NCBI GenBank assembly: GCA_966211615.1
Contig: CBIHNZ010000017.1
Span: 22,954 to 86,953 of the forward strand
Length of the DNA: 64,000 nt
Source: an uncultured Sphingomonas sp.
GTDB taxonomy: Bacteria > Pseudomonadota > Alphaproteobacteria > Sphingomonadales > Sphingomonadaceae
Direction of reading: 5' to 3'
A program made the translations under genes and the position numbers. Positions 2,591 to 52,120 of the stretch are shown here, one piece after another (position 1 is the first letter of the stretch; each line of letters begins with the position of its first letter). Below the pieces are notes generated by a model that saw only the letters and a list, made by a program, of their open reading frames with translations, was not told the origin of the DNA and ran no database searches.

Positions 2591-3406
2591 ATGACCACAG
2601 CCCGCTTGGCGCCCCGGACGGCGCTGTTCCTCCCCGCTTCCAATCCCCGCGCGATCGAGAAGGCGCGCGGGCTGGATGCCGACATGATCATCCTGGACCT
2701 GGAGGATGCCGTGAAGCCCGATGCCAAGGATGCGGCGCGCGCGGCGGCGGTGATCGCGGCGGGCGAGGGGTTCGGGCACCGGCTCTCGGCGATCCGGGTC
2801 AACGGGATCGATGCGGCGGAGCACGGTGCCGATATGGCGGCGGTTGCCGGCTCGGCCTGTGATTTCGTGGTGGTGCCCAAGGTCGAGCGCGCGGAGGAGG
2901 CGGCACGCGTGGCCGCTGCCTGCGGCAAGCCGCTGCTGGCGATGATCGAGACCGCGCGCGGCGTGCTCGCCGCGGCGGATATCGCGGCGGTGCCGGGCGT
3001 GGGCGGGCTGATCGCCGGGGTGAACGATCTCCGCGTGTCGCTGGGGATACCGGCCGACGGCGGGCGCGAAGGGTTGCTGCTGTCGCTCCAGACGGTCGTG
3101 CTCGCGGCGCGGGCGAGCGAGGTCTGGGCGTTCGACGGGGTGTTCAATGCGCTCGACGATGCCGAGGGGCTGGCGGCGGAGTGCCGGCACGGACGCGCGC
3201 TCGGGTTCGACGGCAAGTCGCTGATCCATCCCAACCAGATTTCGGTGGCCGCGAGCGCCTTCGGTCCGAGCGAGGCCGAACTCGCCGATGCCCGGGCGCT
3301 GATCGCCGCGGCGAGCGGCGGCGCCGAGCGTTTCCGCGACCGGATGATCGAGGCGATGCATGTCGAGCAGGCGCGGGCGCTGGTGGCGCGCTCGGCCGGA
3401 GATTAG
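2591..3406 (+). CDS. CitE-like CoA-ester lyase (HpcH/HpaI aldolase/citrate lyase family)
   Basis: LFLPASNPRAIEKA, ILDLEDAV, MIETARGV and GFDGKSLIHPNQI motifs. Confidence 0.9.
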   Translation: MTTARLAPRTALFLPASNPRAIEKARGLDADMIILDLEDAVKPDAKDAARAAAVIAAGEGFGHRLSAIRVNGIDAAEHGADMAAVAGSACDFVVVPKVERAEEAARVAAACGKPLLAMIETARGVLAAADIAAVPGVGGLIAGVNDLRVSLGIPADGGREGLLLSLQTVVLAARASEVWAFDGVFNALDDAEGLAAECRHGRALGFDGKSLIHPNQISVAASAFGPSEAELADARALIAAASGGAERFRDRMIEAMHVEQARALVARSAGD

Positions 3407-3859: not shown

Positions 3860-5380
<1,521 letters not shown>

Positions 5381-5389
5381 GCCTTGGGG

Positions 5390-5670
5390 CTTCCAATGTA
5401 GGATTTCGGCTGCTTTCGTTGCGAGCATGACAATTGCCGCGCCTGCCTTTGCCTGTGTCGACGTCTTTGGCGGCGCCCCGGTGTCGCGTGGATGTGGCAA
5501 AGGTGTCGCGGCCTTGTCGCGTCGGCGCGGCGGAGGTGTCGCGTCCATGGCGCGTCGGCGTGGCGCCGGCGTCGCGCCCGTGTCGCGTCGGTGTCGCGAG
5601 AGTGGCGCTTGGGTGTCGCGTCGCTGTCGCGTCCGAGCGAAAAACCCGGGTACGCGTAAACTTCGTCAAT
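5390..5670 (-). repeat. Dispersed intergenic element copy A with 15-unit 11-bp phased array
   Basis: Minus-strand motifs ATTGACGAAGTTTAC (5670-5656) and AAATCCTACATTGGAAG (5406-5390). TGTCGC-like hexamers every 11 bp from 5471 to 5625 on the plus strand. Confidence 0.85.
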
Positions 5671-5686
5671 TCCGCGGGTGTTTGTC

Positions 5687-6871
5687 GTGACGCCCGCGGC
5701 GCGTACCCAGGCGGCGATCGACCTGCTCGATCGGATCATCGATGCTGCGCGTAACCAGGGCGCGGCCGCCGACACGCTGATCGCCCGCTGGTTTTCCGAA
5801 CGGCGCTATGCCGGGTCCAAGGATCGCCGTGCCATTCGCGAGCTGGTGTATGACGCGATCCGGCTGTGCGGCGAGCGGCCGGAGAACGGCCGCGCGGCGA
5901 TGCTTGCGCTGGTCGGGGTGCGGCCCGAACTGGACGCCGGTTTCGACGGGTCGGGCTATGGACCCGCTGTGATCGCGCCGGGCGAGTCCGTCGCAGCGAC
6001 GGGCCATCTGCCTCGATGGCTGGCCGATGCGATGCGAGCTTCGGGACTGGACGAGGCGGAGCAGGCGGCGCTGCTGGAGCGGGCGCCGCTCGATCTGCGG
6101 GTCAATCGGCTGAAGGCGGATGTCGCCGCGATAGCGGCGCAGCTTCCGGACGCGGTGCCGCTTGCCGAAGTTCCTGATGGCCTGCGCCTCCCGGGTGACA
6201 CGCCGATCGAACGGATGCCCGCCTATGAGGCGGGGCAGTTCGAGGTGCAGGATGCCGGCAGCCAGCTGGTGACGCTGGCGGCGGGCGCCGAGCCGGGCAT
6301 GCATGTGATCGATCTGTGTGCCGGCGGTGGCGGCAAGACGCTGGCGCTGGCCGCAGCGATGGAGAATCGCGGCTCGATCCTGGCGAGCGACATCGACCGG
6401 CCCAGGCTCTCGAAGCTCGCGCCGCGGGCCCAGCGCGCCGGCGTGACGATCGTCGAGACGCGCCTGCTCGATCCGCGCCGCGAGGCCGAGAAGCTGGCCG
6501 ATCAGGCGGGACAGGCCGATATCGTCCTGATCGATGCGCCCTGTTCGGGCACCGGCACCTGGCGGCGCAATCCCGAGGCACGGTGGCGGCTGACGCCCGA
6601 TCGCCTGTCGAAGCTGACGGAGACCCAGGCGATGCTGCTCGATCTCGCGGCGGGGCTGGTGAAGCCGGGCGGGTCGATCGTCTATATCGTCTGCTCGCTG
6701 CTCGATGCCGAGGGTGCGGACCAGGCGCGGCGCTTTCTGGATGCGCATCCGGGCTGGAAAGCGGTGCCGCCGGACCTACATGCGGGTACCCCGCGCGGAC
6801 CCGGACTGCGGCTCACGCCATTCAGGGACTCGACCGACGGCTTTTTTGTCGCGAAGATGACGATGCCATGA
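5687..6871 (+). CDS. RsmB/NOP-family RNA cytosine methyltransferase
   Basis: [11 protein letters not shown] start (GTG 5687), [35 protein letters not shown]. Confidence 0.92.
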
Positions 6872-6903: not shown

Positions 6904-7413
6904 ATGCGGATCACGGCGATCTCGGCAGCGCTTGCGCTGGTGGTGCTGACGGTGTCCACCGGGCTTCACGCCCAGCGGCCCGACGACCAGATCGATCCCA
7001 AGTCGCTCGCGCTGCTGGAGCAGGGCCGTGCGGCCCGGGCAGCGGGCAACGTCCAGGGTGCCAACGACGCGCTGGAGAGCGCGCTTGCAGTCGATCCGCG
7101 CAACCGCGAGGCCTTCATCGTCCTCGCCGAGATCGCGCGCGGCAGCGGTCTTCCGGGCAAGGCGATCCGTCTCTACCGCGAGGCGCTGACGCTCGAGCCC
7201 AACGACCTGTCGGCGCTGCGCGGCCAGGGCGAGGCCATGGTCGCCAAGGGTGCGGTCGAGCGCGCCAAGGAGAATCTCGCCAAGATCAAGACGGTCTGCG
7301 CCACCGCCTGCAACGACGCCACGGCACTCGCGGCGGTGATCGCCAAGGGCCCGCCGGTGACCTCGACCGCGCAGGCCGAGGAGCCGGCCAAGCCGGTGAC
7401 CGCGAAGCCCTAG
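6904..7413 (+). CDS. Exported TPR-repeat protein
   Basis: Signal peptide followed by TPR-like repeats ([23 protein letters not shown]). Confidence 0.85.
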
Positions 7414-13590: not shown

Positions 13591-13646
13591 GCGGCGGAAA
13601 TCAGCGGTTTTTCTCGATTTCGGCGGACGGTCGAGCAATGCGTCAA

Positions 13647-13768
13647 GTTGACACGGTTGACACCTGCCATGTCGAAAAAACTTCCTTCCCGAATTCCGCG
13701 CGTTTTGAAGACCTCGACGATGAGAAAGAGCAGGTCCGTCGATCGGCCCTGAAATCCTACATTGCAAG
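13647..13768 (+). repeat. Dispersed intergenic element copy B (no internal array), followed by a 13-bp tandem duplication
   Basis: GTTGACACGGTTGAC 13647-13661, AAAGAGC 13725-13731, AAATCCTACATTGCAAG 13752-13768; GCAAGGTGATTGG twice at 13764-13789. Confidence 0.75.
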
Positions 13769-13923
13769 GTGATTGGGCAAGGTGATTGGGCAAGCTGGTC
13801 GGATCACCGGTGGAGGGTGACGATCGTTCGGGGGCGGGGCGTGCTCCGGCTTGCATCGGCACCGTCGCGGGACTAGAGAGCCGCGACTTTTCCACAACCC
13901 CAAGACACAGGAGCCGCACGGCC

Positions 13924-14346
13924 ATGGCCGCGACCCGGACCTTTTCGATCATCAAGCCCGATGCCACCCGCCGCAACCTGACCGGTGCGGTCACCAAGAT
14001 GCTCGAGGAAGCCGGCCTGCGCGTCGTCGCCTCCAAGCGCATCCAGATGACCAAGGAGCAGGCCGAGGGCTTTTACGGCGTGCACCGTGAGCGTCCGTTC
14101 TTCAACGACCTCGTCTCGTTCATGATCTCGGGCCCGGTCGTGGTCCAGGTGCTCGAGGGCGAGAACGCGGTGCAGGCGAACCGCGACATCATGGGCGCGA
14201 CCAACCCGGCCAATGCCGATGCCGGCACGATCCGCAAGGAACTGGCCGAATCGATCGAGGCGAACTCGGTCCATGGTTCGGACAGCGAAGAGAATGCGGC
14301 GATCGAGATCGCCTATTTCTTCAAGCCGGAAGAGATTGTCGGCTGA
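13924..14346 (+). CDS. ndk: Nucleoside diphosphate kinase
   Basis: [32 protein letters not shown]. Confidence 0.98.
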
Positions 14347-14388
14347 GCCGATGCCGTCCCTCTCGAATGAGGGACGGAAGCAATTGAG

Positions 14389-14420
14389 AGGGTCGGGGCC
14401 TTCGGGTCTCGACCCTTTTT
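14389..14420 (+). terminator. Intrinsic terminator of ndk
   Basis: AGGGTCGGGGCC-TTCG-GGTCTCGACCCT followed by a T run; a second hairpin (CCGTCCCTC/GAGGGACGG) lies at 14354-14377. Confidence 0.85.
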
Positions 14421-14470
14421 CTTTGGACTGTGCGGCGCGCGCCAGAAGTGGGTGATCCGCTCGCCTACAA

Positions 14471-14748
14471 GTTGCCGAAGTTGACTCGAAGGGCGGGGTG
14501 GAATCTTCCTCTCTCAGAGGCGCCGTGGCGCGCGCGCCCAGAACGCGACGGTAACGCGACAGCAAAGTCACATCTGTGCGCCAGCCATGCAACGGCGACG
14601 CGACAATGAGGGGACAACGACGCGCCACCTACGCGCCACCGACGCGACGATGGCGCCGTGCCGGCGCGGGTGCTTCAATCCACGGTTCAAAGAGCGGCGC
14701 CATCGAAGTCGCCGCTGCAGCCGAGCAGGCTAAATTCTACATTGCAAG
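14471..14748 (+). repeat. Dispersed intergenic element copy C with 11-unit 11-bp phased array
   Basis: GTTGCCGAAGTTGAC 14471-14485; GCG(A/C)C(A/G)-like hexamers every 11 bp from 14534 to 14644; AAAGAGC 14689-14695; AAATTCTACATTGCAAG 14732-14748. Confidence 0.85.
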
Positions 14749-14914
14749 GCCGGATGCGATACGGGAGCATTGACGGCTTTCGGCCCAATCTCTGCCCTCA
14801 GCGCGTCGCTTCGATGACGTCTGTTTTGGCCCCAAGCGAACCCCAGATTGTGCTACGTTCGCGCATCCTAGCTGGGCGTGTGCTCAGGACTGATGCCGGA
14901 CAATCGTGCTCGTG

Positions 14915-51238: not shown

Positions 51239-52120
51239 ATGCGACGTCTCGTCCTGTTGCCGATGCTGGCGCTGATACTGGTCTCGGGATGCGGTGCGCC
51301 GCCTCCGAACGCCAAGAACGCCGACGGTTCCGCAGGCGCTGTGACCGAGAACACGGTCGCGACCGTCGACAATGCGGTGGAGAACACCGGCGGCGTGCCC
51401 GAAAACGGCAGCACCGGCTATCTCGCGGGAGAAGACGCCTATTGCCCCGCCGTCGACTATGTGACGAGCGAGACCCAGTGCCGGCGCTTCACCGAGGAAA
51501 AATCGACATTGGAAGCAGGGCTCGGCGTGTTCAACACACCCAGCGAGATGGTGGTCGGCGAGAGTCGCGACCTGGTGCTGGGCGTGGGCAAGAAGGCCGA
51601 CGCCGCCGAGGTGCACGAATCGGTGGGCGGCAATGCGACGCAGCATGTCGAGGTGCGCACGCCGGTCGGGCATTTCATGACCGCGACCTTGAGCGGCGGC
51701 GGGTTCGACATCACGCCCGAAGGGCCGCAGCCCAAGACGCTGGCGGCGGACCGCAGCGAGGTCTGGCAATGGCGGATCACCGCCAAGGATGCCGGGCCGC
51801 AAAAGCTGCTGCTCACCATCTCGGTCGATGCGACCGCGGCCGACGGCTCGCGATCGCGCTACGACCTGGCGCGCAAGCCGATCGACATCAACGTGAAGGT
51901 GACCGACGCGCAGCGCCGCGACGCGCGCGCCAAGGCGCTGGAGGACAAGCTACGCCGCGGGACGGGCGTGATGGGGGCGCTGGAGAAATGGCTGCTCGCG
52001 CTGGGTGCGGTGGTGGTCGCGCTGGGCGGCGTGTGGATCGCGGTCAGGACGTTCGGGAAGGGGAAGGACAAGGGCGACGCGGCGAAGAAGGATGCGGGGA
52101 CACCGGACAAGAAGGAGTGA
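51239..52120 (+). CDS. Hypothetical lipoprotein with C-terminal TM helix
   Basis: GGAGG RBS, lipobox LVSG-C, beta-rich middle domain (WQWRIT...GPQKLLLTISV), C-terminal hydrophobic segment and basic tail. Confidence 0.8.
   Translation: MRRLVLLPMLALILVSGCGAPPPNAKNADGSAGAVTENTVATVDNAVENTGGVPENGSTGYLAGEDAYCPAVDYVTSETQCRRFTEEKSTLEAGLGVFNTPSEMVVGESRDLVLGVGKKADAAEVHESVGGNATQHVEVRTPVGHFMTATLSGGGFDITPEGPQPKTLAADRSEVWQWRITAKDAGPQKLLLTISVDATAADGSRSRYDLARKPIDINVKVTDAQRRDARAKALEDKLRRGTGVMGALEKWLLALGAVVVALGGVWIAVRTFGKGKDKGDAAKKDAGTPDKKE

Follow-up and report, generated by a model that had tools for sequence, protein, structure and literature searches.

The stretch of DNA analysed here (the window; 64,000 nt of contig CBIHNZ010000017.1, assembly GCA_966211615.1, from an uncultured Sphingomonas sp.) carries a repeat element, referred to as copy A, at the junction between guaB and rsmB. 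The guaB gene (3923-5380) encodes an IMP dehydrogenase (IMPDH, E=8e-156), and the rsmB side of the junction is taken up by an RsmB/F methyltransferase gene (5678-6871). Within the spacer, 15 hexamers follow one another in phase at intervals of 11 bp (5471-5625). Eight are exactly TGTCGC (5482, 5504, 5515, 5537, 5581, 5592, 5614 and 5625), and the others include TGTGGC (5493), CGCGGC (5526) and CGTGGC (5559). Tandem Repeats Finder reported the 11-bp array at 5479-5633 (14.1 copies), together with a 33-bp higher-order period at 5501-5591 (2.8 copies, 82% matches). The initial annotation of this DNA had described an 11-bp-phased array of 15 units, eight of them exact, with YGYGGC variants that gave a 33-bp period, and had seen the left and right motifs of the element recur at 13647-13768 and 14471-14748. 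All of the hexamer positions were reproduced, Tandem Repeats Finder agreed on the longer period, and both motifs were found at the two further sites (copies B and C).

A mosaic family of intergenic repeats

The full element is a short (about 80-300 bp), non-coding, mosaic interspersed repeat of the Sphingomonadales, with ~90 copies in this genome (G000; 5.26 Mb, 66% GC, 88 contigs, which are numbered with a C below). Its right end carries a 17-mer, AAATCCTACATTGCAAG, that occurs in 37 exact copies (4e-5 expected from base composition; 0 for a reversed control pattern), in 75 copies at up to one mismatch and in 100 at up to three. The best-conserved part of the 17-mer is CCTACATT, its last five bases are the most variable, and AGCAGNCG extends it to a 25-mer. 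The paired motif TTGAC-N4-TTGAC occurs 41 times genome-wide, versus 0-16 times for the other spacings from 0 to 11. Similarity between copies ends at or just past the 17-mer and reaches 100-280 bp leftward from it, and clustering of the copies resolved a mosaic of left module, exchangeable body and right module.

The left module is a pair of boxes of ~9 bp (TTGACNNNN/TTGAC or relatives, e.g. AAAGTTCAC), usually in tandem and sometimes inverted, with the types TTGACACGG/TTGACACC (L1), TTGACGAAG/TTGACTCG (L2), two copies of AAAGTCGCA, two copies of AAGGTAAC, and an inverted AAAGTGCAC pair. The right module runs from AAAGAGC through a hairpin, variable in sequence but constant in its pairing, and an optional GAGCCAAGCAGGCG to the 17-mer. 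It contains (T/G)CAAAGAGC or GAGAAAGAGC, and AAAGAGC stands either 26-27 nt or 42-45 nt from the 17-mer, giving a short and a long class. Fragments made of the right module only or of the left module only also exist. Inverted ends were not found when the left end (GGTTGACAC) was compared by eye with the right end read inward (CTTGCAATG), the two agreeing at 4 of 8 bases. A protein-coding role was rejected: the period of the array is not a multiple of 3, unit counts vary among copies, and a 10-codon 'MRKS...' frame in short right modules was judged by eye not to be conserved. At Rfam gathering thresholds a tRNA was the sole pass in the window, and at permissive E-values the best matches to the copies were attI/AAC_AAD_leader (17.3 vs 56 bits) and CcsR1 (14.9 vs 65 bits).

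The 11-bp array is an optional internal module of one 17-member subfamily. Genome-wide, chains of at least five in-phase GCG[AC]C[AG] hexamers were found 17 times at a period of 11 and not at all at periods of 9, 10, 12 or 13. An L2 motif lies 40-75 nt upstream of every one of these arrays, and in 16 of the 17 the 17-mer follows 60-150 nt downstream on the same strand. Arrays span 72, 83, 94, 105, 116, 127, 149 or 160 bp, corresponding to 7-15 units, with that of copy A the longest. Over 180 units, G4 (0.99), C5 (0.95) and C8 (1.00) of the unit GACGCGACACC are conserved and the other positions are kept at 49-85%, a pattern that would be expected of a binding site. In the copy C array, seven hexamers fit GCG[AC]C[AG] in phase, and they run in the same direction between the two ends as those of copy A. 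Like arrays are present in Sphingomonas sp. UNC305MFCol5.2 and at the guaB-rsmB locus of a relative, G017.

The coordinates of the modules are collected in Table 1. Array-type copies have a further module after the 17-mer, because of which the 17-mer is not the physical end of the array subfamily. This downstream module (GGATGCGAG.GCATTGACCGCTTTCGCCCCA), which has a perfect TTGACGG/TTGACCG -35-like heptamer, also comes after the 17-mer at C3:46797, C6:153015, C8:89314, C79:172, C1:286325, C76:5865 and C27:52741. On the other side, an A/T-richer segment with a GAAAATC...GATTTTC inverted repeat lies ~70 nt upstream of many L1 modules (window 13592-13646; C1:50618, C6:176176 and C13:75620; loci L178, L183 and L195 of the closest relative used for comparison, G010), and the true left boundary of the L1 subfamily may therefore be further out. 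A second abundant palindromic repeat, of the CGTC-tagged REP type (CGTCACCCCGG...CCGGGGTGACG), often adjoins the elements and at times lies between the stop codon of a gene and the 17-mer (C22:3338, C8:59591, C1:314963; G010 locus L153, 16300-16620).

Table 1 Modules of the three copies in the window, with the TerS-like loci discussed below
Feature	Position	Strand	Description
Copy A right-end 17-mer	5390-5406	-	AAATCCTACATTGGAAG; one mismatch to family consensus; begins 9 nt beyond guaB stop codon
Copy A region beside right end	5407-5470	-	degenerate; lacks the usual AAAGAGC-plus-hairpin
Copy A minisatellite	5471-5630	-	15 units of 11 bp; consensus GACGCGACACC on element strand (plus strand: TGTCGC)
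Copy A left module, L2 type	5656-5670	-	ATTGACGAAGTTTAC; 7 nt upstream of rsmB GTG start, directed away from rsmB
Copy B left module, L1 type	13648-13673	+	TTGACACGGTTGACAC then GCCATGTC
Copy B right module	13725-13768	+	AAAGAGC, short variable hairpin (CAGGTCCG-TCGA-TCGGCCCTG), exact 17-mer at 13752-13768
Copy C left module, L2 type	14471-14485	+	GTTGCCGAAGTTGAC
Copy C minisatellite	14545-14649	+	105-bp span; ~10 units of 11 bp
Copy C right module, long class	14689-14748	+	AAAGAGC, hairpin GCGGCG..CGCCGC, GCAGCCGAGCAGGCT, 17-mer AAATTCTACATTGCAAG at 14732-14748
Extra downstream module	14749-14795	+	GGATGCGA..GCATTGACGGCTTTCGGCCCAAT; after the 17-mer in at least 8 copies, mostly array-type
TerS-like loci	G000 C54:2884-3346, C2:226103-226538, C29:58557-58854, C18:92063-92718		also loci L002, L132, L160, L165, L168

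Three other features of the window were recorded near the copies or resembling them. A perfect 13-bp tandem duplication, GCAAGGTGATTGG (2.4 copies, 13764-13794), begins within the last 5 bases of the copy B 17-mer and looks like local slippage at the end of the element. A sub-threshold Rfam match to the alphaproteobacterial small RNA ar35 (14308-14423; 24.5 bits vs a 45-bit threshold, E=0.03) overlaps the final 39 nt of ndk and the terminator hairpins after ndk. Lastly, AAAATCGACATTGGAAG at 51499-51515, which has two mismatches to the degenerate search pattern and four to the family consensus and lacks associated modules, is probably a chance match.

Copy number was surveyed with the 17-mer, at up to one mismatch, in 36 sampled genomes of the same genus and 24 from other genera of the order. 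Congeners had 0-46 copies versus 75 in G000 (46 in G010, 16 in G017, 10 in G009, 9 in G021, 6 in G030 and 0 in many), and none was found in the 24 genomes from the order's other genera. A scan of public genomes returned the exact 17-mer from many Sphingomonas species and from Sphingorhabdus, Allosphingosinicella and Sphingopyxis. The copies are intergenic. Convergent junctions, with 24% of the intergenic length, hold 43 of the 77 copies that could be classified (p=4e-9). The end of the 17-mer is within 60 nt of the stop codon of an opposite-strand gene in 25 of 62 cases; at junctions between tandem genes, the right module faces the end of the upstream gene in 17 cases versus 8 (p=0.11). With respect to a possible replication-strand bias, locus coordinates put two copies in opposite orientations on a single replichore of one complete genome.

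Filled sites, empty sites and candidate mobilising enzymes

At the guaB-rsmB junction, many congeners have a spacer of 0-18 nt and others one of 93-868 nt; an element in the same orientation is present in G000, G010, G030 and G017. The region of copy A beside its right end aligns with the orthologous copies of G010 and G017 (GGCAAAGGCAGGCG...AAAGCAGCCG). Because these right-end-adjacent regions align among the species, copy A is an old insertion common to four species, not a recent one. The interior of the element differs, with ~14 units in G000, ~10 in G017 and a collapsed array in G010. The junction as a whole (loci L005-L034) is a hot spot, where several of the long spacers contain repeats unrelated to the family.

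Elsewhere in the window, holC and ndk are separated by a 6-nt spacer in G030 and by an L1-type element in G000, and the G010 element at this site has a different left and a related right module. At the convergent junction at 7413, stop codons lie 1-2 nt apart in G000, and both G010 and G017 bear right-module-only inserts, of different classes. An empty site for copy C was not found in G010 or G030, in both of which the region after ndk is non-syntenic.

Across the whole genome, the flanks of 39 of the 46 copies in G010 could be matched by synteny to G000. At 16 of these sites G000 has an element too, in the same orientation; the other 23 are empty there, eight of them with a G000 gap of at most 54 nt. 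Many of the copies at empty sites belong to a near-identical subfamily specific to G010 (GGTTGACTCATTTGACTC ... GAGAAAGAGCCGGTCCCTCG.TCGGCTCTC plus the 17-mer), which is a recent lineage-specific burst. At six or more common loci the right module can be aligned (63-78% identity) and the left module is of another type (L177, L179, L186, L208, L214, C88a). This points either to recombination between copies that replaced the left part or to repeated insertion at existing right modules. No target duplication was visible at seven family boundaries or in filled/empty pairs, where the exact junctions could not be read to the base because the relatives are only about 85-92% identical, and the nearest of them about 88-92%. 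Taken together, these comparisons show a family that is mobile or was so recently: it has formed lineage-specific subfamilies, and sites that it occupies in one genome are empty in a related one.

No candidate for the enzyme that would move these elements emerged from the searches made. Y1_Tnp (PF01797) had no match in the seven element-bearing genomes searched (G000, G010, G017, G009, G021, G030 and G019), in a search that was positive in G018 and six control genomes. Y2_Tnp (PF04986, IS91) was likewise absent from all seven; it was detected in G029, G031, G035, G054 and G058, none of which has a copy of the 17-mer. IS110, a family without inverted ends that targets hairpins, was rejected as well: its DEDD transposase was found in G006 and G008, which have no elements, but not in the element-bearing G017 and G030, and it scored below threshold in G000. 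An all-against-all comparison of open reading frames (ORFs) within 3 kb of 194 copies found no recurrent neighbouring transposase, this assembly contains no multi-copy long repeats or small insertion-sequence contigs, and a search of a plasmid database with the right module gave no match. The 17-mer contains CTAC, 6 to ~20 nt from a single hairpin, and no inverted doublets were seen. An origin as a PATE derived from IS200/IS605 was rejected, given that there is no Y1 transposase and that most left modules are direct repeats, not hairpins.

These results bear on the remaining proposals of the initial annotation. It had envisaged a dispersed, modular, non-coding family with asymmetric ends and neither an ORF nor terminal inverted repeats, and this is upheld by the motif enrichment across the genome, the strict 11-bp period of the interior, the lack of an Rfam match and the filled and empty sites among species, including the spacers of 0-18 nt that many congeners have between guaB and rsmB. 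Its suggestion that the elements might be substrates of a Y1 transposase of the RAYT type fails, because none of the seven element-bearing genomes has a Y1 or Y2 transposase. Its other idea, a phased platform for protein loading, is doubtful but compatible with the conservation of G4, C5 and C8 in the array unit.

Mobile repeat, docking site or transcript element

We think it probable that copy A belongs to a family of non-autonomous, BOX/BIME-like mosaic mobile repeats with an internal 11-bp minisatellite. An enzyme supplied in trans, other than a Y1 or Y2 HUH transposase, would recognise the right module and move the element, which inserts mostly at the 3' ends of genes, without inverted ends or a recognisable target duplication. 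Array length would shift in 11-bp steps through replication slippage or unequal exchange. Copies would exchange left parts and bodies through recombination in which the conserved modules act as anchors, and this would account for orthologous loci in sister species that keep the right module yet differ in the left one. Once inserted, copies may persist for a long time, as the one shared by four species at guaB-rsmB would illustrate.

Several observations weigh against this account. The invariant GCG.C positions of the array and the identity of the 17-mer across genera both look more like the outcome of selection for a host function than like selfish DNA, and the 11-bp array has been retained at guaB-rsmB in both G000 and G017. 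Inverted ends were not found, and target duplications were not visible at boundaries that could not be read to the base. Searches for a mobilising enzyme were negative: Y1 and Y2 are absent from the element-bearing genomes tested, IS110 does not track copy number, and long multi-copy repeats are lacking in this assembly. In addition, the occurrence of the 17-mer at a fixed distance from certain genes and beside LexA boxes, described next, suggests a cis-regulatory or protein-binding role.

The genes in question encode small, stand-alone helix-turn-helix (HTH) proteins that match phrog_4044 "terminase small subunit" (E=1e-18) and are called TerS-like here; neither Pfam nor NCBIfam gave them a name. 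A search of a phage database with such a protein returned weak matches only (38% identity over 80 aa), to small terminases of Pseudomonas and Achromobacter phages, and only one paralogue, on contig C14, adjoins an ORF that was read by eye as a large terminase. On contigs C54, C2 and C29 and in other species, including genomes with just one or two copies of the motif, TerS-like genes are preceded by the 17-mer in reverse complement, at 18-21 nt from the ATG; at the TerS-like gene on C18 a copy of the 17-mer lies ~40 nt upstream. The TerS-like genes on C54 and C2 occupy 2884-3309 and 226103-226459. No Shine-Dalgarno sequence is present between the reverse-complement 17-mer and the ATG, and the arrangement therefore suggests a leaderless or short-leader promoter or an operator. 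In genomes that lack the 17-mer, TGTCCTACA precedes the ATG of the TerS-like genes by 27-29 nt, in the opposite orientation. There are eight TerS-like protein matches (~7 genes) in G000 and usually one per genome in the order's other genera.

A second fixed arrangement is a composite of GAAC-N7-GAAC (a LexA-type box), 4-5 nt and the 17-mer, which recurs in several species and at C28:3938. This fusion lies upstream of diverse genes (C28:624-3954; loci L001, L045, L054, L089, L098 and L115). In G000 it precedes duplicated gene pairs whose ORF translations resemble a LysM-plus-nuclease toxin and a small immunity-like protein, and these pairs may be SOS-controlled bacteriocin-like modules. Checked by eye, the motifs of the elements fitted poorly to sigma-54, IHF, a lux-box half-site and dif/Xer sites, and also to integron attC/attI, phage-type RNA polymerase promoters and the arm sites of lambda Int.

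Both arrangements speak for a different reading, which we regard as doubtful: that host DNA-binding proteins use the dispersed elements as docking sites and that the spread of the elements is secondary to this function. The 17-mer, with its core TCCTACA, would be the operator or recognition site of a protein conserved in the Sphingomonadales, possibly the TerS-like HTH protein, and the left boxes and 11-bp arrays would form further, helix-phased binding platforms. The strong conservation of CCTACATT and of G4, C5 and C8 (95-100% over 180 units), and the pairing of left-module boxes both directly and in inverted orientation, would fit such platforms. Against it, most copies sit at the 3' ends of genes or between convergent genes and not at promoters, and TerS-like gene number does not track the number of elements, many congeners without copies having kept the genes (G008 has nine and no motif). 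Orthologous copies also decay near-neutrally, with for example 4 mismatches out of 17 in the guaB-rsmB copy of G010, and the TerS-like protein is a putative binding partner.

An extended form of this idea, which we hold to be unlikely, would make both the 17-mer and the GCG.C arrays recognition sites of Sphingomonadales-conserved proteins, with the TerS-like proteins the best candidates, and the ~90 elements a chromosome-wide pac-like or regulatory docking set. Such a set would have spread without a transposase or target duplication, by cassette replacement at existing right modules.

The position of the copies relative to genes raises another, distinctly unlikely, alternative, namely that the opposite strand of the right module, which reads CTTGCAATGTAGGATTT, hairpin, GCTCTTTGA, gives the preceding gene a terminator-like 3' element, as pneumococcal SPRITE repeats do. 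Such a role would explain why the right module is retained. It draws on the closeness of many 17-mers to opposite-strand stop codons, on the right-module-only inserts placed exactly between abutting convergent genes, and on the tendency of the right module to face the upstream gene at tandem junctions. Mismatches in the hairpin also slightly favour folding of that strand (A:C 48 vs G:T 29), as would be expected if the module acted at the 3' end of the adjacent gene. However, the T-tract is weak, just CTCTTT, compared with the long T runs of genuine terminators nearby, such as that after ndk, and the terminator scan was negative. The orientation bias does not reach significance, and a conserved 17-mer has no part in termination.

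That the elements are small-RNA genes, with the left module as promoter and the body and right module as a structured transcript acting through C/U-rich anti-Shine-Dalgarno stretches or as a repeat 'sponge', is very improbable: the L1 consensus TTGACAC-N11-GCTATGTC does resemble the Caulobacter RpoD consensus TTGaCgS/GCtANAWC (PMC8144410), L1-type bodies do have CCTTCCTTCCC and hairpins, and the pairing of the right-module hairpin is kept despite differing sequences, but the -10-like box is restricted to L1, simple scans of the three window copies found neither a canonical sigma-70 promoter nor a terminator, the L1 outer stem (ATGTCGA/TCGACGAT) is broken in two members, folding a cross-species subfamily of 17 members to a consensus gave covariation in two simple hairpins only, hairpin mismatches slightly favour the opposite strand, no Rfam family matches, and the modules also occur singly as left-only and right-only fragments.

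Relation to known repeat systems

BOX, BIME, RIME and other mosaic intergenic repeats are common, but their movement and role are poorly understood. The family described here offers three handles on them: a 17-mer conserved across the order, a burst in a sister species set against clean empty sites in this genome, and an 11-bp array with a few invariant base pairs once per helical turn. Since the usual hairpin-recognising transposases (Y1, Y2) are absent, either an unrecognised route of mobilisation or host proteins that use the sites would be at work. The elements also reshape gene 3' ends and spacers, as in the range of 0-868 nt between guaB and rsmB across the genus, and their arrays are ready-made variable-number tandem-repeat markers.

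Several groups of known sequences share some of these features. Tandem 11-bp direct repeats with a few invariant base pairs once per helical turn are known from iteron and centromere arrays bound by ribbon-helix-helix or Rep proteins, such as R1 parC with ParR and the bind locus of pMV158 RepB. The likeness is in form only: the arrays here are chromosomal, lie in 17 dispersed copies of a repeat family, and have no partner protein, partition or replication genes nearby. The family resembles non-autonomous rolling-circle elements (IS91/ISCR, Helitron-like) in having one conserved end with a subterminal hairpin and a short conserved terminal sequence, a variable other end and no visible target duplication, and its terminal CAAG (CTTG on the other strand) recalls the target tetranucleotide of IS91. 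The family is nonetheless not a member of IS91/ISCR, because Y2 transposase is absent from every element-bearing genome and the same search detects it elsewhere.

Classical MITEs (Correia/NEMIS and the Porphyromonas gingivalis MITE) are also small, non-autonomous and intergenic and show insertion polymorphism at orthologous sites, here seen as the 23 of 39 syntenic G010 sites that are empty in G000. The P. gingivalis case shows that a MITE can have a minisatellite inside it (PMC4596501). Unlike these elements, the present family has no terminal inverted repeats, visible target duplication, parent insertion sequence or AT-richness. The BIME and REP elements of enterobacteria and REPINs come closer, as mosaics of short modules with a GC-rich hairpin beside a GTAG/CTAC tag, in hundreds or fewer intergenic copies located at gene ends, with content that differs between species. 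However, BIME and REP need a RAYT (Y1) gene, and their tag sits at the foot of an imperfect palindrome, commonly in inverted doublets; the elements here have single hairpins and a 17-nt tag up to ~15 nt away from the hairpin.

The closest architecture is that of the BOX element of Streptococcus pneumoniae and S. suis. In pneumococcus it consists of boxA, tandem boxB units and boxC, lies preferentially downstream of genes and has not been assigned a transposase (PMC3049150). The present family resembles it as a composite intergenic element with non-identical conserved end modules and variable tandem units between them, in that length varies among genomes and different end modules can flank the same internal units, in its enrichment downstream of genes and in having no assigned transposase; its 17 arrays of 7-15 units always lie between an L2 module and a right module. 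The two belong to different phyla and have no sequence relationship. The boxB unit, at ~45 bp, is much longer than the 11-bp unit with its invariant GCG.C core, and here the array is confined to one subfamily and the right end is a 17-mer conserved across an order.

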